Assembly (NCBI GenBank): GCA_035627595.1
Contig: DASPLK010000002.1
Location: forward strand, 1,824 to 65,823
Source of the DNA: Minisyncoccota bacterium
GTDB lineage: Bacteria; Patescibacteriota; Minisyncoccia; Phycocordibacterales; Phycocordibacteraceae
Reading direction: 5' to 3'
Length of the DNA: 64,000 nt
Shown: piece after piece, positions 5,882-42,341 of the stretch
Numbering within the stretch: position 1 is the first letter of the stretch
How the letters are laid out: every line of letters begins with the position of its first letter
Made by a program: the position numbers and the translations under genes
Notes under the pieces: generated by a model
Told to the model about the DNA's origin: nothing
The model's input: only the letters and a program-made list of their open reading frames with translations
Database searches by the model: none

Positions 5882-6379
5882 ATGGTTTCTTCTCGTTCGC
5901 GCGGATTTACGCTCATTGAACTCCTCATCGTTATTGCCATCATCGGCATCCTCTCTTCGACGGTGCTTGTGTCGCTCAATAGTGCACGCGCCAAGGCTCG
6001 CGACGCCCGTCGACTAAGCGACCTCAATCAGGTGCGTACAGCGCTCGAGCTTTATTACTTTGATAACGGGTCATATCCCGTACGGGCAAACTGGATAGGG
6101 ACAACGCCCGGGTGCTATAGCGGTCCTGCAGATCCTAAAACGGCAATCCCGGGACTCGTCCCGAAATACCTGCCTTCAATGCCGCAAGATCCGAAGCCAA
6201 CAGGAACTAGCTACTGCTATTTATACAGATCAGATGGAAAGGACTATAAGTTTATGGCGTACAACTCGGCTGAAACACGCACGCCTGCACCAGGCCAGCC
6301 AAACGCGCGCTACCGTTCTGGCTGCGGAAGTGCACAGAGAACTTTTGCGGTGTACTCCGAAGGGTATGGTTGCATGTAA
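5882..6379 (+). CDS. Type IV pilin-like / pseudopilin with class III (prepilin) signal peptide
   Basis: MVSSRSRG|[25 protein letters not shown] prepilin peptidase motif, followed by the conserved [25 protein letters not shown] block. Confidence 0.85.
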   Translation: MVSSRSRGFTLIELLIVIAIIGILSSTVLVSLNSARAKARDARRLSDLNQVRTALELYYFDNGSYPVRANWIGTTPGCYSGPADPKTAIPGLVPKYLPSMPQDPKPTGTSYCYLYRSDGKDYKFMAYNSAETRTPAPGQPNARYRSGCGSAQRTFAVYSEGYGCM

Positions 6380-6450
6380 GGCACCGCAAGCAATGCATAA
6401 TAAGCTTCACTAACAGCAGTGGGTACGCAAGACATGCTATCTTTTCTATA

Positions 6451-7308
6451 ATGGCGCTCACCGATACTGACATAGCAAATCTTGAAGCGAAGGCACGTGA
6501 TGTGCGCGCGACCATTATAGAAATGCTCGTCGCTGCAGGCTCTGGCCATACCGCTGGACCTCTTGGGATGGCAGACATTTTTACCGCGTTCTATTTCCAT
6601 ATTCTGAAGCACGATCCGAAGAACCCTGACTGGGAAGAGCGCGATCGCCTCATACTGAGTAACGGACACATCGTGCCGGTCCGCTATAGTGCTATGGCGC
6701 ATGCAGGGTACTTTCCCGTAGAAGAATGCCTGACACTTCGCAAGTTCGGCTCCAGGCTCCAGGGACACCCGGAACGCGACCGTCTGCCGGGACTTGAGAC
6801 GACCTCGGGACCTTTGGGTTCCGGGCTCTCCCAGTCAGCAGGCATGGCATACGCATTTAAGATGGATGGAAAGAAGAATCGCGTGTACTGCCTCATGTCA
6901 GACGGTGAGCAGAATGCGGGAAATATTTGGGAAGCAGTACTGTGGGCAGGGAAGTATAAGCTCCACAATCTGACCGCGTTCATTGACCGCAACAATATAC
7001 AGATAGACGGCATGACCGAGGACATCATGCCGTTGGAGCCACTTGCCGATAAGTATCGCGCATTCAACTGGCACGTTATTGAAGTGGACGGACACAACAT
7101 GGAAGAGATCATCGACGCGGTTGATCACGCCCGTGCCATTGTCGAGAAGCCTACGCTAGTCATCGCACACACAATCCCTGGGAAGGGCGTACCGGAGATA
7201 GAGTACGACTACAGGTGGCATGGAAAGCCGCCCTCAAAAGAGGAGGCAGAGCAGTTCATTAAAGTGATCCGCTCAATGGGTGGAAAAGTTCCCAACGAAT
7301 ACGCGTAA
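6451..7308 (+). CDS. tkt: Transketolase, N-terminal (TPP-binding) subunit
   Basis: GSGHTAGPLGMADIFTAFYF...SNGH motifs. Start chosen at MALTDTD, inside the longer ORF that begins at 6370. Confidence 0.85.
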   Translation: MALTDTDIANLEAKARDVRATIIEMLVAAGSGHTAGPLGMADIFTAFYFHILKHDPKNPDWEERDRLILSNGHIVPVRYSAMAHAGYFPVEECLTLRKFGSRLQGHPERDRLPGLETTSGPLGSGLSQSAGMAYAFKMDGKKNRVYCLMSDGEQNAGNIWEAVLWAGKYKLHNLTAFIDRNNIQIDGMTEDIMPLEPLADKYRAFNWHVIEVDGHNMEEIIDAVDHARAIVEKPTLVIAHTIPGKGVPEIEYDYRWHGKPPSKEEAEQFIKVIRSMGGKVPNEYA

Positions 7309-7309
7309 C

Positions 7310-7696
7310 ATGAAGCACATCCAAGATGACATTCGTGCATACCTGACAGAGCGCAACTGGAACAACCTCCGTCCCGGCGACATCGCCAAATCTATTTCCA
7401 TAGAAGCGGCAGAGCTACTGGAGGTATTTCAGTGGGAGAATCCTGAGCTTGATGCGGTTAAAGCTGATTCTGAAAAGCTCGCGGAGATTCGGAACGAACT
7501 GGCCGACGTATTCATATACTGCCTTGATATGGCCACGCTCCTAGATCTTGATGCAGAATCAATTGTCCGCGAGAAGCTCGAGAAGGTTAAGTCGAAGTAT
7601 CCTGCTGAGCTATTCCAGGGAGTACAGAATAGTCCAGGTACAGAGGATATATATATGAAGATAAAGCAGGCGCATCGTAACCAAGGAAACGCATGA
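7310..7696 (+). CDS. MazG-like nucleotide pyrophosphohydrolase
   Basis: EAAELLEVFQW...EIRNELADVFIYCLDMA is the MazG/dCTPase-like helical signature. ATG lies 2 nt after the tktN stop. Confidence 0.65.
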   Translation: MKHIQDDIRAYLTERNWNNLRPGDIAKSISIEAAELLEVFQWENPELDAVKADSEKLAEIRNELADVFIYCLDMATLLDLDAESIVREKLEKVKSKYPAELFQGVQNSPGTEDIYMKIKQAHRNQGNA

Positions 7697-8682: not shown

Positions 8683-8683
8683 G

Positions 8684-8710
8684 AAAAGAGCCCTCATGGA
8701 GGGCTCTTTT
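8684..8710. terminator. Bidirectional hairpin terminator between convergent tktC and PfkB kinase genes
   Basis: aaaagagccctc-atg-gagggctctttt, a perfect 12-bp stem flanked by A/T runs. Confidence 0.6.
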
Positions 8711-8711
8711 C

Positions 8712-9707: not shown

Positions 9708-9755
9708 GGCAAAAGTGTAGCATGTGCATATCCGTCGCATGCTACACTCCCGGTA

Positions 9756-10751
9756 ATGATTGATCTTGCACACATCGCCCGACAAATGGTCGCGCCCGGT
9801 AAGGGACTCCTGGCTGCTGACGAGAGCAACATGAGCGCTGATAAGCGTCTCAAGCTATATGGCATCGAGCCATCGGTCGAGATGCGACGTACGTATCGCG
9901 AGCTATTTCTAAACACGCCCGGTATCGAAGCGTACCTTTCTGGTGTAATCCTCTATGAGGAGACATTGGAGCAAAAGGGGAATGACGGCGTCTCATTTCC
10001 TGAGTCCCTTGCGTCCCGCGGCATCATTCCTGGAATCAAAGTGGACACGGGAACCGAGCCGTTTCCGCAGAGCGCAGACGAGCTCATCACTAACGGGCTC
10101 ATCGGCCTCCCTGAGCGCCTTGCAGAGTATCGTGCAAATTATGGTACTGGCTTCACGAAATGGCGCGCGGTCGTAAAGATCGACGGCGACCGGCTTCCGA
10201 CCGCAACCTCACTCGTTGAGAATGCGAAGCGTCTTGCAGAGTATGCACGCCTAGTACAGGAGGCAGGCATGGTGCCTATCCTTGAACCGGAAGTGCTGCT
10301 AGAAGGTCCGCATAGCCGCGTACGCGCGCGCGAAGTGCTCGTGAGAACTATTGAGACGCTCATGGCGACGCTGCAAGATCATGCGGTTGATTTCTCAGGT
10401 GTCATACTCAAAACCGCTATGGCTGTTTCAGGAAGCGAGAGCGGTAGGCTGGACTCACCTGAAGAAGTTGCCGAAGATACCGTAGGAGCGCTTATAGAGA
10501 CTGTGCCGTCCTCCGTTCCGGGCATTGTGTTCCTGTCTGGTGGACAGACGCCGGATCAGGCAACCGAGAACCTGCGCGCGATTACTGCCAAAGCTCGGGA
10601 AGTGCACGCGCCGTGGCCGATGACCTTCTCTTATGCGCGCGCCTTGCAAGAAGAAGCGCTCACCATCTGGGCTGGTAAAGATGAGAACATGGAAGCGGCT
10701 CGTGCAGCGTATGTAGCGCGGCTTGCTAAGGTCGCAGACGCACTTATATAA
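9756..10751 (+). CDS. fba: Fructose-bisphosphate aldolase, class I
   Basis: GKGLLAADES...LSGVILYEETL class I aldolase motifs. Start chosen at MIDLAHIARQ. Confidence 0.8.
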   Translation: MIDLAHIARQMVAPGKGLLAADESNMSADKRLKLYGIEPSVEMRRTYRELFLNTPGIEAYLSGVILYEETLEQKGNDGVSFPESLASRGIIPGIKVDTGTEPFPQSADELITNGLIGLPERLAEYRANYGTGFTKWRAVVKIDGDRLPTATSLVENAKRLAEYARLVQEAGMVPILEPEVLLEGPHSRVRAREVLVRTIETLMATLQDHAVDFSGVILKTAMAVSGSESGRLDSPEEVAEDTVGALIETVPSSVPGIVFLSGGQTPDQATENLRAITAKAREVHAPWPMTFSYARALQEEALTIWAGKDENMEAARAAYVARLAKVADALI

Positions 10752-10803
10752 GGTGTGGATATAAATGCGCTACTATCGCTACTCAATGCGGTAGGGTGTA
10801 TAG

Positions 10804-11241
10804 ATGCACACCCGGCATGCCGGCTTCACTTTAATCGAGCTCCTGGTTGTCATCGCCATCATCGGCATCCTTTCTGCAACGGTACTCGTATCCCTGAATA
10901 CCGCGCGTAGCAAAGCGCGTGATGCTCGTCGTGAGGCCGATTTGCGGCAGGTGCGGACAGCGCTCGAGCTTCATTACCATGAACACGGGCGCTACCCATA
11001 TCACGTTTCAGGCCAGCGGCTTTCAGGTATAGCATCCTCAATGACCCCTACTTATATAGGAGCCATACCGTTTGACCCTGTAGCAGGGGATACCAGCACT
11101 GGCTACCGCTACTACTCGACTTCAGACTACGATGGGTACCAAATGTTAGTTATGCTCGAGACTGACGCATTAAGTAGCTGGTGCCGTCATGATGGAGGCG
11201 CAAACCCTCCGGCGGTCTGGGCAGCATATCCTCTCTGCTAA
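10804..11241 (+). CDS. Type IV pilin-like protein (prepilin signal)
   Basis: MHTRHAG|[52 protein letters not shown]. Confidence 0.85.
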
Positions 11242-11246
11242 ATCCT

Positions 11247-11693
11247 ATGTCACACGCAAATCAACCGCGCGGCTTCACGCTCATCGAACTACTCATCGTC
11301 ATTGCTATTATCGGCATCTTGTCTGCGACTGTGCTCGTATCGCTCAATCAAACACGAGTGAAGGCGCGTGACGCGCTGCGCCAGTCAGACTTGCGTCAAG
11401 TCCGTACCGCACTAGAGATTTACTATTTTGATAACGGCCGTTACCCAACAGACGGTCCAAATACACGTCTAGGAGAGATATCCTCGTCATTGGTCCCTAG
11501 ATATATGCCTAAGATGCCCGTTGATCCGACCTACGGGTCAGGCAGTAGTGGGTACCGATATCGTTCGGATTCCGCTGGCGAGCAAGGATACGAGATACTT
11601 GTGAATATGGAGACTGATAGCGTTACCTGGTGTAGGCAGGCGGGCGGTGCACCATCTACTGCCTGGGCCTCGTACCCGGCTTGTAGTAGCTAG
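11247..11693 (+). CDS. Type IV pilin-like protein (prepilin signal)
   Basis: MSHANQPRG|[52 protein letters not shown]. It starts 6 nt after the preceding pilin gene. Confidence 0.85.
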   Translation: MSHANQPRGFTLIELLIVIAIIGILSATVLVSLNQTRVKARDALRQSDLRQVRTALEIYYFDNGRYPTDGPNTRLGEISSSLVPRYMPKMPVDPTYGSGSSGYRYRSDSAGEQGYEILVNMETDSVTWCRQAGGAPSTAWASYPACSS

Positions 11694-11731
11694 CGACTTG
11701 CAGAAGCGCCCTTAATCCGTATACTTCCCGC

Positions 11732-12361: not shown

Positions 12362-12376
12362 ACATGAACGCTTCAC

Positions 12377-12406: not shown

Positions 12407-12423
12407 GATATACTAAGCTTCTT

Positions 12424-13770
12424 ATGGGTGCACGACTTCTCTTCGCAGCACTTCTACTTAGTACCATCGGCGCGATTGCTCCGTCGGTATTATTTGCGCA
12501 GAGTACGGATGCGACCGCGCAACGTCGCGCAGAACTTCAGCGTCAGCTAAATTCAGTGGAATCACAGATCGCAGCAACCAACTCTGTCATTACGAAGCTT
12601 CAGGGCGAAGGCGCATCATTGCAGCGCGATATCAATATTCTCGATGGAGAGATCAAAAAGGCAAAGCTCCAGGTGCAGGCGACCGATATCGCAATCCAAG
12701 CGCTGGCAAGTAACATCACAGTCCATTCGAGAACCATCAGTACGCTCACGGAACAGCTGGGAACTCAAAAGGAGGCGCTCGCAGAAGTGATCCGCAAGAC
12801 ACGTGAGTACGATGACTACTCTTTGGTGGAGGTCGCGTTTTCTGCTAAGGACGTATCCGAGTTCTTCGGCGATCTCGATTCTTATGCAGCGATCAACGCC
12901 GCCATCGACGCTTCAAGTAAGCGCATCATTTCCACACGCGAGTCTACATCCCAGGAGCGCGATGCGCTTGAGACTCAGAAGTCGCAACACGAGAAGCTAA
13001 AACAGTTGAAGGTGGCTGAGCAGCGGAAAGTTCAGGAGCAGGAAGTCGCAAAGCAGAAGCTGCTCGATCAGACCAAGGGGCAAGAAGCCGCGTATCAGCA
13101 GGTTAAGGCAATGCATGAGCGTACTGCAGCGCAGATCCGTGCTGAGCTCTTTGCGCTAGCGGGCGGAGGCGGCGCAATTCCATTTGGCACAGCGGTCGAA
13201 CATGCAAAGACAGCATCACGTCTCACAGGCGTTCGTCCCGCGCTCATCCTCGCAATTCTCTCTCAGGAATCTGATCTCGGAAGGAATGTCGGTCAGTGTC
13301 TTATCACAAGTCTTGAGACAGGCGATGGAAAGGGAAAGAACACAGGCACGCCGTTCTCGGGTGTCATGAAGGTGCCGCGTGATACCGTCCCGTTCAAGCG
13401 CATTATGGATGCGCTTGGCCAAGACTGGTCTACAACAGCAGTCTCCTGTCCGCAGCCGGGTGGCTATGGAGGTGCGATGGGACCAACGCAGTTCATTCCT
13501 TCTACGTGGGAAATGTATGAGGGCCGCATCAAGAGTGCGCTTGGGGTTGCTGCATCAAACCCATGGAATTCACTACATGCGATTACCGCAACGGGCTTCT
13601 ATCTAGCTGATGTCGGTGCCGCTGGAGGTGCTTACCAAGCAGAACATACGGCAGCAGCCCGATATTATGCTGGCGGCAACTGGGCAACGGCAGGACAGGT
13701 ATACGCTAACAGCGTAATGGGGAAGGCAGCCGCTTTCCAGAAGGATATCGATACGCTAAACGGAAATTAG
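12424..13770 (+). CDS. Secreted coiled-coil protein with C-terminal lytic transglycosylase (SLT/MltB-like) domain
   Basis: Signal peptide. About 230 aa of heptad coiled-coil (EnvC-like). Then ILSQESDLGR (catalytic Glu context) and GAMGPTQFIPSTW, which are typical of lytic murein transglycosylases. Confidence 0.7.
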   Translation: MGARLLFAALLLSTIGAIAPSVLFAQSTDATAQRRAELQRQLNSVESQIAATNSVITKLQGEGASLQRDINILDGEIKKAKLQVQATDIAIQALASNITVHSRTISTLTEQLGTQKEALAEVIRKTREYDDYSLVEVAFSAKDVSEFFGDLDSYAAINAAIDASSKRIISTRESTSQERDALETQKSQHEKLKQLKVAEQRKVQEQEVAKQKLLDQTKGQEAAYQQVKAMHERTAAQIRAELFALAGGGGAIPFGTAVEHAKTASRLTGVRPALILAILSQESDLGRNVGQCLITSLETGDGKGKNTGTPFSGVMKVPRDTVPFKRIMDALGQDWSTTAVSCPQPGGYGGAMGPTQFIPSTWEMYEGRIKSALGVAASNPWNSLHAITATGFYLADVGAAGGAYQAEHTAAARYYAGGNWATAGQVYANSVMGKAAAFQKDIDTLNGN

Positions 13771-13844
13771 GCGGTTCCTTTCTTCCTATACTTTTCCACA
13801 TTGGATAAACGAAAACCATGTAGGTCGGTTATGCTTAGACTTAC

Positions 13845-15269
13845 ATGAACAAGACACTCGCATTTGTCCTCTCCGTATTATTATTGTCATCGCCGCTATA
13901 CTCGTCCGCACAAGAAGCCGCTGATCTGCCAGAACCAGAAGCGGTTGAGCAACAGGAAACTGCTGTTTTGCCAGAAACAGTCGAGCTACCAGCACGCCTC
14001 ACTGCTCCTGAAGGACTCACCTCGTGTTTTGAGACATATCGCTTTGGCTCGGTATATGCAGATTTAGCTCCATCACTCACAGAAGCATCGCAAAGCTCCT
14101 CGCTCGCATTCTCAGGGACGATAACAAATGAGAATCCATATCCTGTATCTGATATCACGATCTGGGCGAAAGTATTTAAGGTTCGTACGGAAGGAAAGGA
14201 CATAAACGGCCCGGATGTGCTTGCATGGGAAGCGGTCGCAACTGATCTAACCCTTAAAGCAGGCGAGACACGTCCGCTCTCGTATGAATGGTTCGTTCCT
14301 GCAGATGCCGAGCCGGGAAACTACCAGCTCGCAACCTATGTCACCAACTTCGATAGGTTTGAGCTATCAGGTCTGACCTTCACGGACGATATCGTCGGCA
14401 TGAAGAATGAGTTCACGGTGGTTGGAGACTCTATGGGCGCAGTGCGCTTTGATAAAGATGGTGTAACGGTTGCTGATCGCACATTTTACTTTGCTGCCTA
14501 TCCGCCAACTCTTCCTAGAGATACGGAGTCCGTACCGGTAGTCGCTACTATCGTTAACACAACGCCGGCACCCTACTTTGGAACGGTAACGTGGAAGCTG
14601 CACTATTGGGATCGCATTACAAATCGCACGCTCATCTCTGAATCAACTGAAGAGGTGCAGGTTAATCCAAATGAAACTGCGACCGTATCCTATACCGTGG
14701 ATGATACAGATCACGCGGTGTACTATCTCGTTGGCGAACTAGAGACCGAGCTAGGCTCGAAATCAATTATTGGCGTACGCTTTGTACGCGAGGGAGTTCA
14801 GGAGGCACGTTTGAACTTCGTAACGGGTACACCTGACCCAGAGAGCGGAAAGGGTGTTGCGGTTGCGTGTATTCACGCAACTAACTACACGCCCGTTGAA
14901 AATGGCCGCATAGAGCTTTCTGCTCGCCGTTCGGGACTCTTTTACGATCTCCTCGCGCCGTTTGGAATTGGCGATCTTGGATTCAAGAAGTATGAGGGCC
15001 TAATCTCTAGCGAGATTTATGCGCTTGAGATGCCTCTTACTGCAGCAGCAGCTTCATACGTAGTAAGCGCAAAACTGTATCAAGGAGATGAGCTCGTGGA
15101 CCAGGTGAGTGTGCCGTACTGTGAAGGTGACAAGTGCGCATCCATGATCTGGGTGTACGTATCCGTAGGTTTGATCCTCCTCAGTCTTATTGGAATCGGT
15201 GTGTACGTTCTTCTGAGACGACGACGTACTACTGCAATACCGCAGCCACCAGTAACCCCAACCGTATGA
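13845..15269 (+). CDS. Secreted hypothetical protein with C-terminal TM anchor plus poly-Arg stop-transfer
   Basis: Signal peptide (LAFVLSVLLLSSPLYSSAQE). C-terminal IWVYVSVGLILLSLIGIGVYVLLRRRR. No recognisable catalytic motif. Confidence 0.6.
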   Translation: MNKTLAFVLSVLLLSSPLYSSAQEAADLPEPEAVEQQETAVLPETVELPARLTAPEGLTSCFETYRFGSVYADLAPSLTEASQSSSLAFSGTITNENPYPVSDITIWAKVFKVRTEGKDINGPDVLAWEAVATDLTLKAGETRPLSYEWFVPADAEPGNYQLATYVTNFDRFELSGLTFTDDIVGMKNEFTVVGDSMGAVRFDKDGVTVADRTFYFAAYPPTLPRDTESVPVVATIVNTTPAPYFGTVTWKLHYWDRITNRTLISESTEEVQVNPNETATVSYTVDDTDHAVYYLVGELETELGSKSIIGVRFVREGVQEARLNFVTGTPDPESGKGVAVACIHATNYTPVENGRIELSARRSGLFYDLLAPFGIGDLGFKKYEGLISSEIYALEMPLTAAAASYVVSAKLYQGDELVDQVSVPYCEGDKCASMIWVYVSVGLILLSLIGIGVYVLLRRRRTTAIPQPPVTPTV

Positions 15270-17272
15270 TCCGTATCACCAACGCCCTCGTTTTCTCGCT
15301 AGTACTTTTGGGAGCTGTCTCGTACGCACCGCAAGCGGAAGCTAAGAGTGTGTCTCATAGCTATGTGTACGAGGCATACATGATGCTCACCCAGGCGACG
15401 CCATTTTGGGCGGAAATGAGCAATCCGAACGTGACGGTTACCTATGAAGCCACGATCACTAATGCAGACACGGGTGCAGTGATCAATGATGGTGCGCAGG
15501 TGCCCAAAGGAACACGCATCAAGATAGCGCCTAAGCCGCATACCTCGGACGATATTTACTGGTTCGGCACTGGTTCCTCAAATGACAGTCCGTATGGTAG
15601 CTGGGGCACTTCCGCTCCTGGCGTCACCTGCGACGCTAAGGACTTCCTGAACCCGGTCTACTACGTCGGTGATGTGTATGTGTCTGTGATTGTCCCTCCG
15701 CCAACTAAAACGATTACACAGTCAAGCAATATGACTTGCGGAGCTGTTGCCGCAGATGGATCAAAAATATGTACCGTGACGGGTGTAGGAGCTGCTACAG
15801 CAACAGTTAAATTTGCTGCGACATCCGGTACATGGCACTCATCCTACAAACCTTCGGGAGATCCAACTACGTGTAGGCGTGGATTTAGTCCCGTATATAA
15901 TACATATCGAAATCCGGACGGTTGGTCGTACTCCAGCGAAGTTGCACGTGTCGATGTTCCGGAGAAGTCTATTACGTTCTCTTTTAACGCAGTAGATGTT
16001 CAGGCACCGCCAGCAGCTCCAACGATAACGTGTCCAGCTTCAGGTAAGGTGGGACAAGAGCTTAGCTTCACCTTTACCGCAGCGGATCCAAACAGTGACC
16101 AGCTTCGTTACGGTATTAACTGGGCAGGGGGCACGACTGTTACCCAGTGGGCACCTGCATCAGGATACGTAAATAGCGGAACTGCCCAGACGGTTAAGCG
16201 CACATGGACTTCTGCTGGCACGTACACGGTGAGGGCTCTTGCCCAAGACAGCAAGGGAGCATCCTCTGCATGGGCCTCGTGCCAGGTAACGATTTCAGCG
16301 TCGCCTGACCTCATCCCAACTTCGCTTACACCGCAGCGAGCAGTCGAAGATAGGTCCGTAACGTTCGTTGCCAACATATCGAATGCAGGAGGAGCGGCTG
16401 CTGGAACATTCTCATCAACGGTGTACATCTGTGCCCAGGCAGATACAGCCTGCAGGAATAGTGTCGTCGCAAACGCAAATAACTCATGGTTTAAACGGCT
16501 TGTAGCGTTCTTCATACCATCTGTAGCGCGAGCTGCTACTGCGGTTCAGGTGCGGCTAAGTGGAAGCGGAATTGCTGCAGCTTCAAGTGGGCAGCAAACG
16601 GGAAGCTACACATTCCCTAATCAAGGCACGTACGTCATGCGTGTATGCGCAGACCGTCCCGCTAATGCGGTCGTCGAGTCTAATGAGACGAATAACTGTC
16701 AGGATTGGACCACAATTGTTGTTGATCCTGCAGTGCCGCCTTCAGTCTCGTGTGCCGTATCTCCAACACGCATCAGCTCAGGTCAAAGTGTTACGTACAC
16801 GACGACATCTAATGGCGGAGCTACGGGACCTTACACCTGGACTCCTTCAGATGGAGCAAACGTAGGTACGGGCGCATCAGTGACTCGCACAATCACTACG
16901 CCTGGCCCTCACAGCATGACCGTAAAGGGTTCAAACACAGCGGTAGCAAACTGTCCGCTTGTGGATGTGACCGCAACCTGGTGTACGAGTTCAACACCGG
17001 ACCTCACCATAACCGCAGAGCCTAGTCGAGTTAACATTGGCCAGTCAGTTGAGCTTGAGTGGAGTGCTAGGGGAGTTAATGGCCAGAACGCTACTTGTAC
17101 GGTTACGGGCCCTGGAGTTTCCTGGTCTGGACCGGTCTCTCTAGCACCTTCCTGTAGCGTATCTGGATCAGCAAATCCGGTCATAAACACTCAAAGTACC
17201 TATACGCTCACCTGTGGTGCTACGAGCGAGTCAGTTATTGTGAACGTGGTGCCTGACGTCGTCGAGTTCTAG
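15266..17272 (+). CDS. Large secreted protein with multiple Ig-like/PKD-like domains (paralog of 18355..19749)
   Basis: ATG overlaps the upstream TGA (ATGA). Signal peptide (LVFSLVLLGAVSYAPQAEA). Repeated Cys-bounded ~90-aa modules. The C-terminal VIVNVVPDVVEF motif is shared with the paralog. Confidence 0.65.
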   Translation: MIRITNALVFSLVLLGAVSYAPQAEAKSVSHSYVYEAYMMLTQATPFWAEMSNPNVTVTYEATITNADTGAVINDGAQVPKGTRIKIAPKPHTSDDIYWFGTGSSNDSPYGSWGTSAPGVTCDAKDFLNPVYYVGDVYVSVIVPPPTKTITQSSNMTCGAVAADGSKICTVTGVGAATATVKFAATSGTWHSSYKPSGDPTTCRRGFSPVYNTYRNPDGWSYSSEVARVDVPEKSITFSFNAVDVQAPPAAPTITCPASGKVGQELSFTFTAADPNSDQLRYGINWAGGTTVTQWAPASGYVNSGTAQTVKRTWTSAGTYTVRALAQDSKGASSAWASCQVTISASPDLIPTSLTPQRAVEDRSVTFVANISNAGGAAAGTFSSTVYICAQADTACRNSVVANANNSWFKRLVAFFIPSVARAATAVQVRLSGSGIAAASSGQQTGSYTFPNQGTYVMRVCADRPANAVVESNETNNCQDWTTIVVDPAVPPSVSCAVSPTRISSGQSVTYTTTSNGGATGPYTWTPSDGANVGTGASVTRTITTPGPHSMTVKGSNTAVANCPLVDVTATWCTSSTPDLTITAEPSRVNIGQSVELEWSARGVNGQNATCTVTGPGVSWSGPVSLAPSCSVSGSANPVINTQSTYTLTCGATSESVIVNVVPDVVEF

Positions 17273-22888: not shown

Positions 22889-22965
22889 GCCAGCGTAGCT
22901 CAGTTGGTTAGAGCAGCTGTTTTGTAAACAGCAGGTCGTCGGTTCGAACCCGACCGCTGGCTCCA
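22889..22965 (+). tRNA. tRNA-Thr (anticodon UGU), CCA encoded
   Basis: Cloverleaf read by eye: acceptor GCCAGCG/CGCTGGC; D-arm TAGCTCAGTTGGTTAGAGC; anticodon stem GCTGT/ACAGC with loop TTTGTAA (UGU); T-arm GTCGG-TTCGAAC-CCGAC; discriminator T, then CCA. Confidence 0.8.
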
Positions 22966-28283: not shown

Positions 28284-28356
28284 CAAGTAGGCTCTATTTC
28301 AGTGCTTTAAGCAGGGGAAAACTTGCACTTGATGTGCTATACTTTACGTAAGAAAC

Positions 28357-30444: not shown

Positions 30445-30950
30445 TGCGGGATAGCTTTAACGTAGTTCATTCCGTAGCTGGTGTCACAGGTAGGACAACA
30501 ACTTACATGGTTCGTGGGCCCATTTACAAACCTATCTTCGGTAGCGAGACTTGCCATCACATACGTAGCTTCTGAGCAGCTATATTTCATGTATGCATGA
30601 CTTTGGACTGACGCGCTTGAGGAACGAGCGCCTGTGGGGTCAATTATCTCGCTCGGTACGTATCCACCATTTACTAAGCACATTGCAGTAGAGGTGTGGC
30701 CGCTATACGCTACATTGAACCAGCCACTACCGTTTCCACCACTACCACATCCGCTTCCGGAACCTGCAAAGGTGCCGTGATCTAACGCATATAAATAGAG
30801 CGCTTTAATGATGGTATCAACATCAGCCTTGCGCCTGGCATCCAGCGCCTTGAATCGCGCGCTATTTAGCGATACGAGGACGGTCGCAGAAAGGATACCT
30901 ATGATGGCGATGACAACCAATAATTCAATAAGAGTGAATCCGCGCTTCAT
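30441..30950 (-). CDS. Type IV pilin-like protein (prepilin signal), Cys-rich C-terminal domain
   Basis: MKRG|[39 protein letters not shown]. Its 3' end overlaps the gyrB stop (convergent). Confidence 0.85.
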
Positions 30951-31002
30951 ATATACGTTATACCCTGTTGAGATATGGACGCCATGCCTGACTTAGGATA
31001 AC

Positions 31003-31030
31003 AAAAAGCCCCACGTGCGTGGGGCTTTTT
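31003..31030 (-). terminator. Hairpin terminator for minus-strand gene 31051..31848
   Basis: aaaaagccccac-gtgc-gtggggcttttt. On the minus strand it is followed by TTTTTGTT. Confidence 0.6.
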
Positions 31031-31050
31031 GTAAATGGAGTAGGGAACCC

Positions 31051-31848
31051 TTAGTCCTCGACCTCAATTTCGAAAGTGAGGCGGTTGTTGTTTTCGTTGG
31101 ACTCGTTGACGTCTTCACCGCTGTCGATCTCAATTTTTACATCGTTCTCGCCATCACGGGGACGATCGTAGCCCAGAGTGAAGTCAGCAAACTGACCGGG
31201 CATGAGCGATACCTGCTCGCGGGACTTGTAGGTGTAGCGCGGGCGGGTCGGAAGTTCTGCTTCGAACTGCCACCGGCCGCTCTCGTTCGTGCCGGTATTG
31301 GTCACGCGGAACTTGAACGCAGGACGCTCGTCCTCAGGGACAGTTGAGTCCTTCACAAACGAGTCGGTCGAACTCGTGCGGAGATACCCGACCTCGACAA
31401 GGCGAACCGTAAGATCGGCTTTGCCATAAAGGTTCCGAGTGCCCGGTACCGGGACTGCAATCACAGTCGGGGTCGTAGGCTGTGTAGGCGTCACAGTCTG
31501 GGAAGGAGTTGACGGAACAGGGTAGGTGGTTGTTTCTACCGGATCGGTAGAGGTGGCACTCTCCTCATCTTCATCATTCCTTTCATTCTCAAATGGGACG
31601 CTTTCTCCTGGAACGACCTCAAGGTCATTGTCTCCCTCATCGCCTCCGAAGATAGACGAGAAGTACACGTTAGCTGCGCCGAGGCGGGAAGCCGTATCCG
31701 GGAGGATGCGGGCAGCGTAGATAGCAAGCGTAATACCAATAAACAGAAGCGCGACGAAGCCGACGACGGCAAGGCCGTTAATCGCGGCCCGGCGGGTGCC
31801 TGTTGGGCGCTCGACGGTCGTTGTGGTGGTATGGGTCATGGGTTCCAT
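31051..31848 (-). CDS. Membrane-anchored acidic hypothetical protein (possible CARDB-like C-terminal domain)
   Basis: N-terminal TM (LAVVGFVALLFIGITLAIYAA). D/E-rich linker. Thr/Pro-rich segment. C-terminal beta-rich domain ending NNNRLTFEIEV. Confidence 0.45.
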   Translation of the reverse strand: MEPMTHTTTTTVERPTGTRRAAINGLAVVGFVALLFIGITLAIYAARILPDTASRLGAANVYFSSIFGGDEGDNDLEVVPGESVPFENERNDEDEESATSTDPVETTTYPVPSTPSQTVTPTQPTTPTVIAVPVPGTRNLYGKADLTVRLVEVGYLRTSSTDSFVKDSTVPEDERPAFKFRVTNTGTNESGRWQFEAELPTRPRYTYKSREQVSLMPGQFADFTLGYDRPRDGENDVKIEIDSGEDVNESNENNNRLTFEIEVED

Positions 31849-31950
31849 ATGCTCACATATGTACCATAGCCTATATTCTTTGTCAAATCTGTGGTAAAAG
31901 CTGAAAACTTGACAAAAGAGATAATCTTATGTAGTTATATGTAAGAACAT

Positions 31951-32607
31951 ATGGCACAGGTTCACGACAGCAAGGAGGCCTCAGGGCTGCTCGCACAGGT
32001 ATTCGCAAGGAAGTTCAGCTTCGTTGCGGCCTTTACGCTTGTATTTTTTGTGACCTTCTCGGTGCTCCAGGCGTTTGAGCTGGTGCCTGAGGAGATTGCA
32101 AAAGAGGAAGTAAAGGAGGGGCGCCTCACTGCATCAGTCGCTGAGACGGTAAAGGCGCTTCCGGAGTATCCGACGCGTATTGAGATCCCGGCTATTGAGA
32201 TGAATGCGGAGATTGCGAACCCGACGTCGACAAATGTTGCGGTACTTGATCGCGCGCTCCTGAAGACGGCGGTCCGCTATCCGACGTCGGCACGACTTGG
32301 CGAAGAAGGGAACGTTATCCTTTTCGGCCACTCGAGCTATCTTCCGGTCGTGAACAATGAGGCATATAAGATCTTCAATGAAATTCAGAAGCTTGAAGAG
32401 GGTGATCGCATCACCGTCTATGGCACCGAAACTGTATACGTATACGAGGTGGATGCCGTAGAAGAGAAGGATGCTGAAGCAGATGCAATCCCACTAACCG
32501 TAGGGGAGCCGACGCTAACCCTTTCGACTTGCGATTCGTTCGGAAAGAAAACCGACCGGTTCGTTGTTACCGCAAAGCTTGTGGGAAGCCATCCGATCGA
32601 GGACTAA
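31951..32607 (+). CDS. Sortase family transpeptidase
   Basis: N-terminal membrane anchor. The catalytic triad is arranged in sortase order: ILFGH (His), TLTLSTCD (TLxTC Cys), and DRFVVTAKL (Arg). Confidence 0.75.
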   Translation: MAQVHDSKEASGLLAQVFARKFSFVAAFTLVFFVTFSVLQAFELVPEEIAKEEVKEGRLTASVAETVKALPEYPTRIEIPAIEMNAEIANPTSTNVAVLDRALLKTAVRYPTSARLGEEGNVILFGHSSYLPVVNNEAYKIFNEIQKLEEGDRITVYGTETVYVYEVDAVEEKDAEADAIPLTVGEPTLTLSTCDSFGKKTDRFVVTAKLVGSHPIED

Positions 32608-32721
32608 GGTCCCCGTTGGATGGCTCGTCGCAAGATGAGAAGTTCGGCCGCGAAAGCGGAAGCGAGCGAATGTTCAAACGTGCTCCCAATTTCGGGTTCA
32701 GCACAAGCAAGGAGAACAGAG

Positions 32722-33705
32722 ATGAAGAAGCGCCTTCTGACTACCGCGCTTTCCATCGCTCTCGTCGCGCTGCCCACTCAATTCGTGGGAGCATCGGCGG
32801 TGATGGCGATGGAGCCGGCTGGGCAGTCATTCTGTCCGGACGGAATCGAAAGCGGCGAGGAACTCGCCCGAAAGCTTGATGCTTCGCTGGCGATCGACCC
32901 GCAGGGCAGCCGGCCGCTTGAAGGCTGTCACGCGAACCCTATCGAGTTCCTGGTGGCCTTCAATGCTGCCGATCGACAAGAAGGTCTGACCCACGTCAAC
33001 CAGCTCCCAGCCTATGCCAGGAAGCTGGTCCCCGTGGAAGTGGACCGGACGCTCGAGTACCAGTCGTCTTGCATCCGCGTGATGTCGGGCGGCAGGAGGG
33101 CAGTCGAGATGGGTTGTGTTACGCGCTCGCTGCGTCGCGGGGAAGTGATCTACATGAACCCCGATACGCAGACGAAGGTCCTGTGGAGCGGCTGCGCCAA
33201 TCCCGGGTTCGCCCCAAGCCTCGAGCTCATCGTCGTGGGCAGGGAGTGCATCCGCATTCGGGTACCCCCGCTGCCTGTCGGCACCGTCGCGCGTGGCGGG
33301 TACATCGGTCCGCGCCTGCTTCCGGGCCGCTGCCACGCGCTCCGGCTTCCGGGTGCCGAAGATCGCATCTTCGACCTCCCGGAAGAATGTCCGATGGGCG
33401 TTCGCGAGCGTGAAGGTCGGCTGGTCCCGATCGTTTGTGACTGGACCGCCGTCGAACGCAACACGAGCCGGATCATGGGACAACCCGTGCAGATCCAGAA
33501 CGTGAGCTTCAGCTTCGTCGTCAGGGAGACGGACGGTTTCGACTGGTACCTTCCTCCCGAGGCGGTCGAGGGCCATGCCGCACTCTGTTTCGAGCTTCCG
33601 AACGGCGACATCGTCACGTTTTCGGTCAGCGAACGGAACTACGTGGACGGCGAGTACGTGGTTACTGAAGCGGACATCCGCAACAATACCCACGACATCG
33701 GCTGA
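32722..33705 (+). CDS. Secreted Cys/Arg-rich hypothetical protein encoded in a high-GC island
   Basis: Signal peptide (MKKRLLTTALSIALVALP). Codon usage dominated by GCC/CGC/CCG, unlike the neighbours. The opposite-strand W/R-rich ORF is an artefact. Confidence 0.45.
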   Translation: MKKRLLTTALSIALVALPTQFVGASAVMAMEPAGQSFCPDGIESGEELARKLDASLAIDPQGSRPLEGCHANPIEFLVAFNAADRQEGLTHVNQLPAYARKLVPVEVDRTLEYQSSCIRVMSGGRRAVEMGCVTRSLRRGEVIYMNPDTQTKVLWSGCANPGFAPSLELIVVGRECIRIRVPPLPVGTVARGGYIGPRLLPGRCHALRLPGAEDRIFDLPEECPMGVREREGRLVPIVCDWTAVERNTSRIMGQPVQIQNVSFSFVVRETDGFDWYLPPEAVEGHAALCFELPNGDIVTFSVSERNYVDGEYVVTEADIRNNTHDIG

Positions 33706-33819
33706 TTGTTGGTGCGTGCGGGGCTTAAAACCCCCGCACGTCACCTCCATCTCTTTCTCCTTTTTTATACGCTGCGAAAGCAGCAGGGAATTATTTCTTA
33801 TCACTTTACTGAAACACCT

Positions 33820-35892
33820 ATGGAAAGCATCGTCGCCAAAAGCCGATTCTCGAAATCCAAACCGATTCTTGTCGGCGTGTTCGCCGTGCTCGTAACGCTC
33901 GCAAGCGGTATGGCACTCGCGTTCGCACTCGGATTTACGACCCCGGAGAAATTGATGGCACAGGTCACGCCACAGCCGCCATGCTGCACACCGCAGCCAC
34001 CGCAGCCACCTCCACCACCGCCACCTCCACCACCGCCAACACCTCCGGTCACTCCACAGCCTCCCTGCTGCGTGCCTCCACCGCCTCCACCGCCGCCACC
34101 TCCACCACCACCTCCACCACCTCCACCACCTCCGCCACCACCTCCACCACCTCCACCTCCTCCGCCACCGCCACCGCCGGTAGTCGCGCAGTGTGTCTAC
34201 TTGCGTGCAAACAAGAGCACTATTTCGGCACCAGGCGAAGCAGTCGTCCTTAGCTGGAAGACCATTAATGGTGTATCTGCATCCATCAATAATGGAGTCG
34301 GTGCTGTTTCTCCGGTCGGGGAGGGTTCTATAACCGTTAATCCGACAGGGGACACTACGTATACTCTTACCGTCAACGGCATCATCGGCCAGGCCGATTG
34401 TGAGACGAGTATCACTATTGGTGATACGCAGCCAGCTGCGCGTTGTGTTGCATTTGCTGCAAGCCATGAGCAAATCACACCGGGCCAGGCCGTCACGCTT
34501 ACCTGGGAGACCGAGAACGCTACCCGCGCCTCGATTAACCAGAACATCGGTCAGGTAGCTCTATCGGGTTCCATGACGGTCAACCCGACCCAGACCACGA
34601 CCTACATCCTTACTGTTGAGGGCGTAAATGGGCCAGTCGATTGTCAGGATACAGTAGTTGTCGATGATGGACCTCCTCCGTCCGGTCCTCGCTGTATCTA
34701 CCTAAGGGCTAGCGATACAACTATTGAGGAAGGACAGGAGATCACCCTTACCTGGGAGACCGAAAGGGCATCGCGCGTCGAACTCAACCAGGGTATCGGT
34801 CGTGTTGCCGCTGACGGTTCTCGTGAGGTTAGCCCAGATGAGGACACGACCTATGTTCTCTCAGTGTATGACGACGAAGATGGCGAAGCCGCTGATCTCA
34901 TCGACACCTGCCAGGTGAGCGTTTCTCTCGATGACGACGACGATGATGATGGAGGCGGCGGTGGCGGTGGCGGAAGCCGCAGGCCGCGTGTCGTACTTGA
35001 TGTAGACACCATTGAGCCTGAGCCACCGCTCTCCTTCGTGTACCTCTCTGAGATGCCGTACACCGGTCTTGATCTCGGTCCTATGGGTACCGCTGTCTAC
35101 TGGCTCATGCTGATCGGCTGGAGCGCAGCAGCTGCATACCTCACGCTCTTCCACATCATGCCGTTCGCGCTCCGTAGGGTCCGCACCTTCGGCACGGATG
35201 TTCATGGCGTCCTCAATAGCGATCATGCTCCAGAGGCGCACGAGGAGACCGTGATGCATTCCGCATCGCATGCAGTACCTGCTGCACATCCTCCGGCATC
35301 GCATGCACCTGCACACGCTGATGCAAGCCACTTCCGGGGCTACACCTCTAAGGAGGGCTTCCGCTCCTTCGCGCAGACCGATACGCTTACGATCGATGAC
35401 ATCGTAAAGGGTCTATCTCGCGAAAGCGCGCAGGCACCAGTACACCAGGAGCCAGTAGTACAGGCATCGGTATACCAGGCGCCAATCGCACAGGCGCAGA
35501 TTGAGCCGGTCATCGTACCGAACACAGAGCGCATCCAGGAGCAGACCGCCGCTCAGATGGAGATCCATCACGACGTTCCAGCATTCATCCAGGCACTTCT
35601 TGCAGGTGACCGTGATACGGTCTTCGGCATGCTGCGCCAGGTGAATCGTACGGGCGGCGACTCTGAGACCTTCGTGACCCATGCGGTCTGCGCGCTTGAC
35701 GATGCGTACCGCGCACGTCTTGAGGGCACCCCGTGCCATCCAGAGATTCTCCGCGCTACCGAGGATTGTGCTACACCATTCCTTGAGAAGGTGATCGTAT
35801 CCCTTGCGACCGCAGTAGACTCGAGCTACTCAACGGGCGTGACAGGCGCAAAACTTGCGCTCACTCGTGCGCTCTCCGTTGTAAACGGATAA
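33820..35892 (+). CDS. Large surface protein: signal anchor, ~60-aa poly-Pro linker, 3 tandem Ig-like repeats, Asp/Gly-rich spacer, internal PYTG-TM-RRVR segment, His-rich C-terminal region
   Basis: Start chosen at MESIVAKSRF. Three ~100-aa repeats (CVYLRANKSTISAPGEAVVLSWKT..., CVAFAASHEQITPGQAVTLTWET..., CIYLRASDTTIEEGQEITLTWET...). LSEMPYTGLDLG is followed by a 25-aa hydrophobic stretch and then RRVR. Confidence 0.6.
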   Translation: MESIVAKSRFSKSKPILVGVFAVLVTLASGMALAFALGFTTPEKLMAQVTPQPPCCTPQPPQPPPPPPPPPPPTPPVTPQPPCCVPPPPPPPPPPPPPPPPPPPPPPPPPPPPPPPPPPPVVAQCVYLRANKSTISAPGEAVVLSWKTINGVSASINNGVGAVSPVGEGSITVNPTGDTTYTLTVNGIIGQADCETSITIGDTQPAARCVAFAASHEQITPGQAVTLTWETENATRASINQNIGQVALSGSMTVNPTQTTTYILTVEGVNGPVDCQDTVVVDDGPPPSGPRCIYLRASDTTIEEGQEITLTWETERASRVELNQGIGRVAADGSREVSPDEDTTYVLSVYDDEDGEAADLIDTCQVSVSLDDDDDDDGGGGGGGGSRRPRVVLDVDTIEPEPPLSFVYLSEMPYTGLDLGPMGTAVYWLMLIGWSAAAAYLTLFHIMPFALRRVRTFGTDVHGVLNSDHAPEAHEETVMHSASHAVPAAHPPASHAPAHADASHFRGYTSKEGFRSFAQTDTLTIDDIVKGLSRESAQAPVHQEPVVQASVYQAPIAQAQIEPVIVPNTERIQEQTAAQMEIHHDVPAFIQALLAGDRDTVFGMLRQVNRTGGDSETFVTHAVCALDDAYRARLEGTPCHPEILRATEDCATPFLEKVIVSLATAVDSSYSTGVTGAKLALTRALSVVNG
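33972..34178 (+). repeat. CCN trinucleotide (poly-proline-coding) low-complexity tract
   Basis: About 200 nt of near-pure CCA/CCG/CCT codons. It produces the spurious antisense W/R-rich ORF 32827..34473. Confidence 0.8.
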
Positions 35893-35904
35893 GCCACCAA
35901 TACC

Positions 35905-35934: not shown

Positions 35935-35937
35935 GTG

Positions 35938-37677: not shown

Positions 37678-37756
37678 AGCATGAGAATAGCATGGAAAGA
37701 CAAAGGGCGGCTCCTTGCGGGGCCGCCCTGTATAGTCCTAGCGCTCGGGTGCATCC

Positions 37757-37963
37757 CTAGGAAGGCTCCCTATATGCGCTAGCAAGTTGCGTAAGTTTGG
37801 CGGCGAACTCATACAGTAGGTCGCTCATAGTGCCGCTCTTCTCGGCCTTTCGCTTCTCCAGGCCCTGGGTAGCGATGGCCAGAAGGGCTACGTGCGCGAT
37901 CGGTCCGCGCCCGTCCTGAAGTCTTTTGAGAATCTCAGGCAGTGTCAGCGATGATTCGCTCAT
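37757..37963 (-). CDS. Small hypothetical protein (68 aa)
   Basis: Intact ORF co-oriented between dnaE and thrS. No motif. May be non-coding. Confidence 0.25.
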   Translation of the reverse strand: MSESSLTLPEILKRLQDGRGPIAHVALLAIATQGLEKRKAEKSGTMSDLLYEFAAKLTQLASAYREPS

Positions 37964-38004
37964 TACCGTTTCTCCACGCGAGTCAGTCTCGCAACACCGT
38001 TATA

Positions 38005-41000: not shown

Positions 41001-41163
41001 CAGCTTTATAGAACTCGATGACACCATGGAGGTTGCCTGCATCCGTAAGCGCGAGTGCCTCCATCCCAGCTTCCTTCGCGGTTTTAACGAGTTCCGGAAT
41101 CTTTGGAAGCGCCTCAAGGAAGGAGTAGTGGCTATGAACGTGGAGGTGCGCGTAGCGACTCAT
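38005..41163 (-). CDS. dnaE: DNA polymerase III alpha subunit
   Basis: The YAHLHVHSHYSFLEA PHP-domain start and the polymerase core blocks (GSAAGSLVSYLVGIT, DIDMDF, GLLKFDFLG) are present. Start chosen at MSRYAHLH. Confidence 0.85.
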   Translation of the reverse strand: MSRYAHLHVHSHYSFLEALPKIPELVKTAKEAGMEALALTDAGNLHGVIEFYKAATKAGIKPIIGVDAYVAQRSRHDRDANEKFSRLVLLAENEAGYKNLLKLVTLSFTEGMSDRPRIDLEILKEHKDGLIALIPSFAGAPMKLLSAGDVAGAAAALAEYVSVFGKGNVFLEITHHPKADGHIKRMDGVRALSKESGVPLVAQHDVYYLRPDDREANEVLRRIKHGRHGANEVEDFSFVTEKEMLEWFKDEEDAVWRSGEIAERCNVSFELGSWVFPAIEVEEGKTHEQVLRERTYAGLSMRGMKETPEVKERIEYELEVIISKGFAPYYLVVSDLLTFAKSAGILTTTRGSAAGSLVSYLVGITNVDPIAYKLPFERFLNPERPKAPDIDMDFADNRRDEVIQYAKRKYGEDKVAQIGTFGTMMARAAVRDVARALGHSYGIGDRIAKLIPMGSQGFPMTIGRALELEEELKNLYESDDDVKEVIDLARRIEGSARHTGVHAAGVVIAPTPLTEWTALQTDPKTGKLITQYDMHAIEDAGLLKFDFLGIKNLAILSDAVDRVRESRDRWIDIENIPLDDALTFSMLARGETEGLFQLNGSGMTRYLKELRPTTIHDINAMVALYRPGPMETIPQYVERKHNSKLIHYMDERMKDYLDASYGLLVYQDDVLLTAIKLGGYSWLEADNLRKAMGKKIPAEMEAQKEKLLQGFMDFGKLSREKAERIWKLIEPFAAYGFNKAHAASYGKVAYQTAYMKANHPVEYMAAVLTADAGDTEAIAIFVAECVRLGIPVLPPDVNESGTDFTVVLGKDREDGTDAIRFGLTSIKNFGEGISEEILRARQEGGPFSSLSDFLCRIGSRALNRKSLESLIKCGALDSLGDRGLMLRHIEQMLTFHRDATQTAHQDSLFGTMSAPTLRLPEEVVEISLGEKLVWEKELLGIYVSGHPLDEHAETLNKAKRTIANVLADPTPGLPVILPVIVEEVRTILTKKGEKMAFVRFADKTDSIEAVIFTKLYKDFAEFLVPGTCLLIKATISGRNGETSLSIENMKAL

Positions 41164-41232
41164 TACCCCTAGGATACCAAAGCATCGGCTATCCTCAGAG
41201 CGCACAGGAAACGAGGGCGTACATGCTATAAA

Positions 41233-41763
41233 ATGTATATGGTTTCCACGCGTAATACGCGCGGCTTCACGCTCATCGAGCTCCTGGTTGTCATCGCCAT
41301 AATCGGCATTCTCTCAGCTACGGTGCTCGTTTCCTTGAACACCGCACGTGGGAAAGCACGTGATGCTCGGCGTCTTTCCGACCTGCGGCAAGTGCAAATT
41401 GCGCTTGAGCTCTATTACCACGCACACGGTTCATATCCCGTATCGCCAGCAGGTGGCTTCACCTGGGCGCGCAGCTCATGTGTCACCGGAAGTCAGTACT
41501 ATACGGCGCTTGAGCCGTTAGTGTCTGAAGGGTACTTGCCATCCATACCTATAGATCCGGTCAACCAAAGCAGTGGCAGTCCTATACATTGCTACTGGTA
41601 CTTTACCGAACAGCACGATGGCGGAAACTGCGGTACTGCCGTTAATGCGAATGAATACGAGTATGTCCTCTTCTTCTCTACGGAGGGTGCCGATCTAAAC
41701 CATCCAGTAGGTCGCGTTGGTGCTTCTGGCCCATCGTGGTGCCTGCTCGGTCCGAAGAGGTAG
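41233..41763 (+). CDS. Type IV pilin-like protein (prepilin signal)
   Basis: M(YM)VSTRNTRG|[52 protein letters not shown]. Alternative start at 41239. Confidence 0.85.
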   Translation: MYMVSTRNTRGFTLIELLVVIAIIGILSATVLVSLNTARGKARDARRLSDLRQVQIALELYYHAHGSYPVSPAGGFTWARSSCVTGSQYYTALEPLVSEGYLPSIPIDPVNQSSGSPIHCYWYFTEQHDGGNCGTAVNANEYEYVLFFSTEGADLNHPVGRVGASGPSWCLLGPKR

Positions 41764-41831
41764 GTCGTATATCCTAGAAATGGCGCGTAGCAATATTAAA
41801 TTCTATGTAGCGTGCGTGCTATAAAAGGTAT

Positions 41832-42341
41832 ATGTTCACTTCCCGGAGCGAGCGCGGCTTCACGCTTATCGAGCTCCTGGTCGTCATCGCTATCATCGGC
41901 ATTCTATCGGCGACCGTGCTCGTGTCTTTGAATACAGCGAGAACAAAAGCGCGGACCGCAGCCATAAAAGCGCAGGTCATTGAATTCCGTAAATTAATGG
42001 AGCTTGAACACCTTCAGACTGGAAGCTATGTGAACCTTGCACGTGGTTGGGTTGGAACCGGCGCCACAAACCCCACATGCGAAAATCGTGGATATGCCGG
42101 AGCATACGCGGATCAGGCTGTTGCCATCTGTAGAGGCATAGTCTCAAATGGCATTGCGGGGGAAAATGTTTTACATACAGGCGTAAATACCGCACTCGGG
42201 TTTACCTACACAGAGGACGTGGCAATTATGGCCGTGCTTCCCGACGGAAACATGTTTTGCGCGGGGTCTAGCGGAGCGACTTCGGAGGTTGCATTTTTAA
42301 GTGCGAATTATGTACAGCCCGGCTGTTACAGCAACCCCTAA
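41832..42341 (+). CDS. Type IV pilin-like protein (prepilin signal)
   Basis: MFTSRSERG|[40 protein letters not shown]. Confidence 0.85.

Follow-up and report, generated by a model that had tools for sequence, protein, structure and literature searches.

Six dispersed type IV pilin paralogues of a Paceibacterota bacterium and the probable upkeep of their common N-terminus by selection on the protein

Bacteria of the Candidate Phyla Radiation (CPR, or Patescibacteria) were already known for a hallmark set of multiple dispersed pilin genes, which are thought to serve host attachment and DNA uptake. It has been reported that a pilin family together with PilB, PilT, PilC, PilM, PilN and PilO is enriched and widespread in CPR and co-localised in many of the genomes, with PilQ absent (PMC6744442), and that the conserved core of the Parcubacteria includes type IV pilus (T4P) genes (PMC4508563). 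In TM7x (Nanosynbacter lyticus), 12 pilins were encoded at four loci, lone pilins included, and two distinct T4P served host binding and motility (PMC11623550). Here we describe six pilin genes from a 64-kb stretch of DNA (54.7% G+C; hereafter the window) of an uncultivated ultrasmall soil bacterium belonging to Candidatus Paceibacterota, a CPR lineage. With the T4 pilins described before (PilA1 and PilA2 and the lone PilJ and PilK of TM7x, and fam000005 of Meheust et al. 2019) they shared the class III signal and, according to the model of p41233, the lollipop fold, as well as a setting of many paralogues per small genome, several loci including machinery-free ones, and no secretin (PMC11623550, PMC6744442). 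They differed in that the organism was a member of the Paceibacterota and not a Saccharibacterium, and in that six genes, all with the N-terminus of a major pilin, occurred within 64 kb. Moreover, all six were located away from the machinery and their predicted products had lineage-specific C-terminal domains.

Three other systems were close enough to be compared. The monoderm bacteria Streptococcus sanguinis (PilE1 and PilE2) and Clostridioides difficile (PilA1) also lack a secretin and have several pilins that share the N-terminal half of the first helix (alpha1-N) and could co-assemble. PilE1 and PilE2 of S. sanguinis do co-assemble. However, the pilins of these species lie inside one pil operon, whereas for the six proteins of the window co-assembly would be a prediction. 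The pilE/pilS system of Neisseria likewise combines one conserved N-terminal part with exposed C-terminal parts that vary over many pilin-related loci. The pilS copies are promoterless and 5'-truncated and have long DNA-identical segments in common with pilE; in contrast, the six genes of the window were complete and their DNA identity did not go beyond amino-acid constraint. Finally, the GspG, PulG and EpsG proteins of type II secretion systems (T2SS) had in common with the window pilins the motif AR.KARDA.R..DL..I..ALE.Y after alpha1-N, part of the fold, and weak matches to PF08334. On the other hand, the window came from a monoderm lineage, it held no T2SS-specific partners, and most of the copies were under the Pfam threshold.

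An earlier note on this DNA had described six paralogues similar to type IV pilins, scattered singly or in pairs between housekeeping operons, and both the number and the dispersal were confirmed: six complete open reading frames (ORFs) were present, and every one of them matched the N-methylation family PF07963 (E 2e-9 to 2e-8, over the gathering score). The first, p5882 (5882-6379, forward strand; 165 aa; HYE22987), had the leader MVSSRSRG, four Cys residues and a GspG-like C-domain (PF07963 E 2.7e-9), and was flanked by rpe on one side and by the N-terminal half of transketolase on the other. A tandem pair was located between the genes for a class I aldolase and L25, with p10804 first (10804-11241, forward; 145 aa; leader MHTRHAG; two Cys; PF07963 E 3.3e-9) and p11247 after it (11247-11693, forward; 148 aa; leader MSHANQPRG; two Cys; HYE22994). 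The fourth gene, p30441 (30441-30950, reverse; 169 aa; leader MKRG; HYE23013), encoded six Cys residues in a Gly-rich divergent C-domain and was convergent with gyrB, the 3' ends overlapping by 4 nt. Next to dnaE, and divergent from it, was p41233 (41239-41763, forward; 174 aa; four Cys; HYE23022); its ORF opened at 41233 (a 176-aa form with the leader M(YM)VSTRNTRG), whereas the NCBI start was at 41239. The last gene, p41832 (41832-42341, forward; 169 aa; leader MFTSRSERG; four Cys; HYE23023), was directly upstream of rnhB and lacked the DARR..DLRQ block. Neither a motif scan in six frames nor a more permissive one gave a convincing seventh copy anywhere in the window.

These genes were ordinary members of a well-known family that had already been deposited and annotated. 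Namely, HYE23022, which was 100% identical to p41233, came from a 313,628-bp NCBI contig and was recorded as 'MAG TPA: type II secretion system protein [Candidatus Paceibacterota bacterium]', and all six exact pilin sequences were also found on a 360,173-bp JGI/ENA contig, p10804 being returned without an NCBI accession. The label 'type II secretion system protein', which several of the six carried, was probably misleading for a monoderm lineage. Beyond correct annotation, the significance of the genes themselves was small.

The sequence signals were those of pilins. All six proteins had a class III signal with a basic leader (one or two Lys/Arg), Gly-1, Phe1 and Glu5, and in the segment GFTLIELL(V/I)VIAIIGILS(A/S)TVLVSLN, where the predicted cut follows the first Gly, 24 of the 26 positions were invariant across the six. 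The mature lengths were 138-165 residues. The number of Cys residues was even in every pilin (2, 2, 4, 4, 4 and 6), and one of these residues was the last or close to the C-terminal end. The divergent Cys-containing C-terminal domains described in the earlier note stood. The near-identical leaders described there did not, since the leaders ranged from 4 to 9-11 residues and differed in sequence; only the mature N-terminus was identical. Similarly, the AR.KARDARR block assigned to all six was present in four of them, and p30441 and p41832 diverged from about mature residue 31. The N-terminal amino-acid conservation was far above chance, yet it was family-wide, as the same N-terminus was found in pilins of dozens of Paceibacterota contigs. 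A profile of the six matched solved structures of Geobacter PilA (5e-16), Thermus PilA4 (9e-12), Neisseria PilE (1e-10) and GspG (5wda; 5.5e-10), and P. aeruginosa PilA was matched as well. The AlphaFold 2 model of p41233, built with 46 homologues, had a mean predicted confidence (pLDDT) of 89.1 and consisted of a helix at 12-63 (52 residues, pLDDT 93-98) with a small alpha/beta head. Its ten best matches to the PDB by Foldseek were without exception type IV pilins or pseudopilins, and C. difficile PilA1 was among its Foldseek matches. For p41832, modelled from a six-sequence alignment, the pLDDT was 44.8; the same helix at 12-63 was predicted with lower confidence and the head was uninformative. 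There was also a weak ComP_DUS match for p41233 (E 0.072, below threshold). Thus, the six genes very probably encode genuine type IV pilin-family subunits with an N-terminus typical of major pilins.

The earlier note was also right that the window held no assembly or prepilin peptidase genes. No PilB, PilT, PilC, PilD, PilM, PilN or PilO was found there by Pfam searches on 20 non-obvious ORFs, and tblastn of the window with the PilM, PilN, PilO, PilB, PilT, PilC and PilD proteins from two CPR clusters produced noise only at E<=1. In order to place the pilins in context, a metagenome scan with the six-pilin alignment yielded 80 pilin loci, 32 of which were of at least 8 kb. A T2SSE-type ATPase was present within 10 kb in eight of these long loci and absent from the other 24, and therefore pilins apart from the machinery were the rule. 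Two CPR contigs, L104 and L086, did have a cluster consisting of pilM, (pilN), pilO, pilB, a response regulator, pilT, pilC, pilin(s), pilD, four minor pilins and ligA, with the gene identities checked by Pfam for L104. In both contigs a pilin with the same N-terminus as the six was located between pilC and pilD. The assembly machinery is thus present in the lineage.

The solitary position of the six genes had to be weighed against another possibility, namely that their products are not filament subunits but are secreted or placed on the surface, the class III signal and its peptidase serving only for membrane anchoring or release, as in archaeal sugar-binding proteins with class III signals. 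The lack of assembly genes nearby and the great diversity of the C-domains could be read in this way, and so could the housekeeping and surface-protein neighbours, such as the sortase and CARDB genes near p30441. However, a mature length of 138-165 residues, Glu5, an alpha1 helix of 52 residues and even numbers of Cys were features of polymerising pilins, and the pilin that takes the place of the major pilin in the CPR T4P clusters had an identical N-terminus. In addition, the whole of alpha1-N was strictly conserved, which would be expected for packing in a filament core more than for signal cleavage alone. We therefore considered a non-filament role improbable.

Pseudopilins of a type II secretion system (GspG/H-like), which would form a short periplasmic piston and not a surface pilus, were a very unlikely identity for the six proteins, although part of the similarity pointed in this direction. 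Namely, p5882 passed the PF08334 T2SSG cutoff of 21 by a small margin (22.1 bits) and p11247 was just under it (20.1 bits), the profile matched GspG as given above, the model of p41233 matched EpsG and PulG, and the NCBI names said the same. Still, this similarity was at or below the threshold and the remaining four proteins had no T2SSG match. The CPR clusters with the same pilin N-terminus encoded PilM, PilO, PilB, PilT, PilC and PilD, and a Pfam search on ten of the cluster genes identified no GspC, GspD, GspL or GspM. Neither gspC, gspD, gspE, gspF, gspL or gspM nor a secretin was associated with the pilins in the 64-kb window by Pfam or tblastn. Moreover, no secretin and no Gram-negative envelope have been reported in CPR (PMC6744442), and pili have been seen and genetically assigned to such pilins in TM7x (PMC11623550). 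Nor were the pilins located in a comG-type operon with ComGA and ComGB, as expected for a competence pseudopilus (ComGC-like), since the window had no T2SSE or T2SSF gene; they may nevertheless have a role in DNA uptake.

The next question was how the N-termini were kept alike. According to the earlier note, the N-terminal ~50 codons were nearly identical at the DNA level and were subject to ongoing gene conversion or cassette-like diversification. In this explanation the six 5' ends would be held alike by conversion and the exposed domains would change by cassette exchange, so that antigens or host range would vary as with Neisseria pilE/pilS. The mature N-terminus was indeed near-invariant at the protein level in all six. 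We aligned the paralogue codons from Gly-1 and split the comparisons into codons 1-26 and 27-52. Nucleotide identity between the window paralogues was 72-86% in the first part and 40-76% in the second, which did not amount to near-identity, and the synonymous sites were saturated. At identical amino acids the same codon was used in 238 of 589 cases (0.40), compared with 0.345 expected from the codon usage of the window housekeeping genes.

As a control we took pairs between the window pilins and their non-orthologues on L002, because recent DNA exchange between them was not possible. L002 was an ENA scaffold and the closest readable relative of the window (DnaE 90% identical; synonymous divergence dS>1, that is, saturated synonymous sites). 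In codons 1-26 the same-codon fraction was lower in the window paralogue pairs (0.43) than in these cross-genome pairs (0.49). The proportion of synonymous differences (pS) in the same codons was 0.67 for window pairs (range 0.49-0.95) and 0.66 for pairs from unrelated contigs encoding the same 26 residues (n=38). The longest in-register identical run was 26 nt within the window as against 29 nt between non-orthologues of different genomes. Thus, there was no 5' similarity at synonymous sites above amino-acid constraint, and by this condition, which the earlier note itself had named as refuting its proposal, conversion was refuted for the present state of the window.

Conversion-like events were nevertheless visible elsewhere in the family. 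Tandem pairs of major-type pilins in four other CPR contigs served as positive controls with pS 0.04-0.09 (L104:10016-10903, L099:692-1550, L118:10004-11050 and L122:43-930). These pairs had patches of ~90-150 nt with 96-100% identity over the codons of the mature N-terminal helix and ~50% identity on both sides (leader/untranslated region and C-domain), which looks like the signature of short-tract gene conversion or very recent partial duplication. Since such bounded identical patches were readily seen, the synonymous-site test had power. An intermediate case was the trio of L002 pilins between dnaE and rnhB, whose first 26 codons had pS 0.26-0.41 and 87-92% nucleotide identity and were closer to one another than any window pair. 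These patches and the trio, as well as the clade-specific residues discussed below, would be compatible with conversion.

In the window, on the other hand, pS equalled that of the unrelated pairs and the identical runs were no longer than between genomes. Conversion-like events thus occurred in the pilin family, but the window showed none. A tblastn search with the six C-domains detected no silent or truncated pilin copies in the window, only the p10804/p11247 pair (47%) and a weak p5882-p11247 match. All six genes were full-length with a start codon and a leader, five had a -10-like element, and there were no promoterless or 5'-truncated copies of the C-domain. The C-domains themselves were stably inherited, with 68% identity to orthologues. 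Conversion with cassette exchange was consequently the least probable of the explanations considered, and we regard it as extremely unlikely. The paralogues are old and separately inherited, and the codon evidence shows that the N-terminal identity is kept by purifying selection on the protein and not by ongoing gene conversion. A synonymous-site test with both cross-genome and positive controls can tell protein-level constraint from gene conversion, which we consider a methodological gain.

The stability of the C-domains was evident from the gene order shared by the window and L002: pilin, CARDB, sortase, thrS, dnaE, pilins, rnhB, rpmF, nusB, rnc, smc. L002 had three pilins between dnaE and rnhB and the window had two (L002:10001-11625 versus 41233-42341), the middle L002 pilin (10549-11076) being without a counterpart in the window. 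Full-length identity to the L002 orthologues was 72% for p41233 and 75% for p41832 (L002:11113-11625). A 174-aa gene with the N_methyl domain was located beside the L002 CARDB gene, in the same place as p30441. Thus, at least three of the six pilins were at the same chromosomal places in L002. Since the C-domains of orthologues were nearly as similar as RNase HII (75%; sortase 77% and the CARDB protein 75% by whole-protein identity), the exposed domains were inherited vertically under purifying selection and were not shuffled. Further full-length orthologues of p41233 had 81, 80, 63 and 57-58% identity. The C-domain of p5882, which was in the pentose-phosphate cluster here, had 58% identity with a pilin located next to dnaE on another contig (L008). 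A chimeric query of five C-domains, aimed at orthologues of the five paralogues, returned one irrelevant match.

The presence of the pilins varied strongly over a larger sample. We surveyed 81 dnaE loci, comprising L002 and the 80 species representatives that a DnaE search retrieved at 53-74% identity; the source species was outside the set of species representatives, as its best DnaE match was 74% identical. Synteny was evident in this DnaE scan, but pilus machinery genes did not appear in it. Only 13 of the 81 loci had a pilin-like gene within 10 kb of dnaE. In most loci rnhB abutted dnaE directly, and in six lineages the dnaE/rnhB junction contained one to three pilins; the other pilin sites among these loci were smc/rnc or dnaE/thrS. 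Because their presence varied on a conserved housekeeping backbone, the pilin genes can be considered as accessory, with members of the family being acquired, lost or relocated at the junctions between genes. Direct or inverted repeats that would point to a mobile element did not flank the pilin genes. We think that this coming and going at the junctions of a strongly conserved Paceibacterota backbone is worth recording. The backbone itself (28357-48394; gyrB, CARDB, sortase, thrS, dnaE, divergent rnhB, rpmF, nusB, rnc and smc) had its order conserved in ~35 representatives (L004-L040).

As read from the sequence, a -10-like hexamer was located 6-7 nt before the ATG in the five pilin genes mentioned above. 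These were TAGGGT at 5869-5874 before p5882 and at 10792-10797 before p10804, TATAAA preceded by TGC at 41227-41232 (6 nt before the ATG at 41239 of p41233), and TATAAA at 41820-41825 before p41832, all on the forward strand, as well as TATAAC at 30957-30962 on the reverse strand before p30441. The sixth gene, p11247, was probably co-transcribed with p10804 because it started 5 nt after the p10804 stop and had no -10-like element of its own. A perfect 15-bp inverted repeat (ACAAAAAGCCCCACG/CGTGGGGCTTTTTGT) was present at 31001-31032, in the intergenic stretch that follows the CARDB gene and precedes the start of p30441. As a terminator-like hairpin it would keep the transcription unit upstream and p30441 apart. 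The pilin genes are thus probably self-contained, leaderless transcription units. A consensus promoter and terminator scan of the window gave nothing above shuffles, and the pilin hexamers were not called. Hexamers like TATACT or TATAGT were also observed 7-16 nt before many start codons of the window (for example, 1650-1664, 11720-11731, 28335-28356 and 46160-46177). Shine-Dalgarno motifs were few across the window. These features suggest that leaderless or very short-leader transcripts may be widespread in this organism.

If the six proteins are pilins, a path to the surface can be outlined. The prepilins would insert into the membrane via the hydrophobic alpha1-N segment, a PilD-type peptidase would cut after Gly-1 and methylate Phe1, and polymerisation of the subunits into pili would fall to a PilB/PilC/PilM-N-O machine with genes in another part of the genome. 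A secretin would be superfluous, as there is no outer membrane in CPR cells. As the first 25 mature residues were the same, a single peptidase, platform and filament core should accommodate all six. The differing globular domains, with their putative disulfide bonds, could then give differing filament surfaces or roles as tip or minor subunits, and the filaments might act in host attachment, DNA uptake or motility.

Several points weigh against this interpretation of the six genes as pilins constrained only at the protein level. The Foldseek E-values of the p41233 model were weak (best 0.013), and the C-domains of p30441 and p41832 had no confident model. The promoter and leaderless assignments depended on reading the DNA, and the processing, methylation, polymerisation and biological role of the pilins are predictions. 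Neither an assembly ATPase nor a platform protein or a prepilin peptidase was tied to the source genome: a search with a Lloydbacteria PilB (L086) gave, among its best 120 matches, a plateau of ~60% identity with none assignable to the source contigs, and the ten NCBI-sourced candidates, where an accession was given, were outside the HYE22xxx-23xxx series. Finally, in mature numbering, the nine paralogues (six from the window and three from L002) had A11, I15, A18, T19 and V22 in common, except that p5882 had S18. In sister clades the orthologues of p41233 had S11, L or M15, S18, V or I19, and A, S or T22. Because the paralogues shared clade-specific residues, some homogenisation in the past was possible.

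This last point deserved a separate consideration. Across CPR loci, the amino-acid identity of alpha1-N was 0.86 for pilin pairs within a genome and 0.70 between genomes. Together with the shared clade-specific residues, this meant that the N-termini co-evolved within genomes. One tentative and rather doubtful hypothesis is that alpha1-N of the dispersed major-type pilins of CPR evolves in concert by episodic short-tract conversion, which would keep the filament core compatible, and that the window was sampled long after the last event. The same N-terminal data could result from old conversion, from lineage-specific duplication, or from selection for pilins that assemble together on one machinery. 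Whichever was the cause, the process was not ongoing in the window.

A number of other features were observed in the window. Beside p30441 there was a surface-protein neighbourhood (31051-35892) with the CARDB protein, the sortase and a protein of 728 aa that contained long runs of proline and whose MPYTG motif, with a hydrophobic segment after it, may be a sortase sorting signal. Within it, the protein encoded at 32620-33705 (forward) had no Pfam match and only 27% identity to the L002 protein in the equivalent position; since its neighbours were 75-90% identical, it was either very fast-evolving or replaced. Large surface proteins were also predicted at 3-1652, 15134-17272 and 18355-19749, one with a Peptidase_S74 domain (endosialidase chaperone) and two with CARDB and PKD domains. 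Between rnc and smc the window had a gene with a phage Mu Gam-like domain (45436-46059, reverse; PF07352, E 3.5e-7), whereas L002 had no gene there. The NusB orthologue (43752-44675, forward; 307 aa) had an L002 counterpart (13069-13989) that matched both the NusB and the NUDIX Pfam families, a combination that would be an unusual fusion. A tRNA-Thr (22889-22965) was the sole match of the tRNA and Rfam scans of the window, and rpoB (55053-58232) was intact. The 148-aa protein encoded at 49981-50427 (forward) was essentially the C-terminal helix-turn-helix of DnaA (PF08299, E 7.7e-21).

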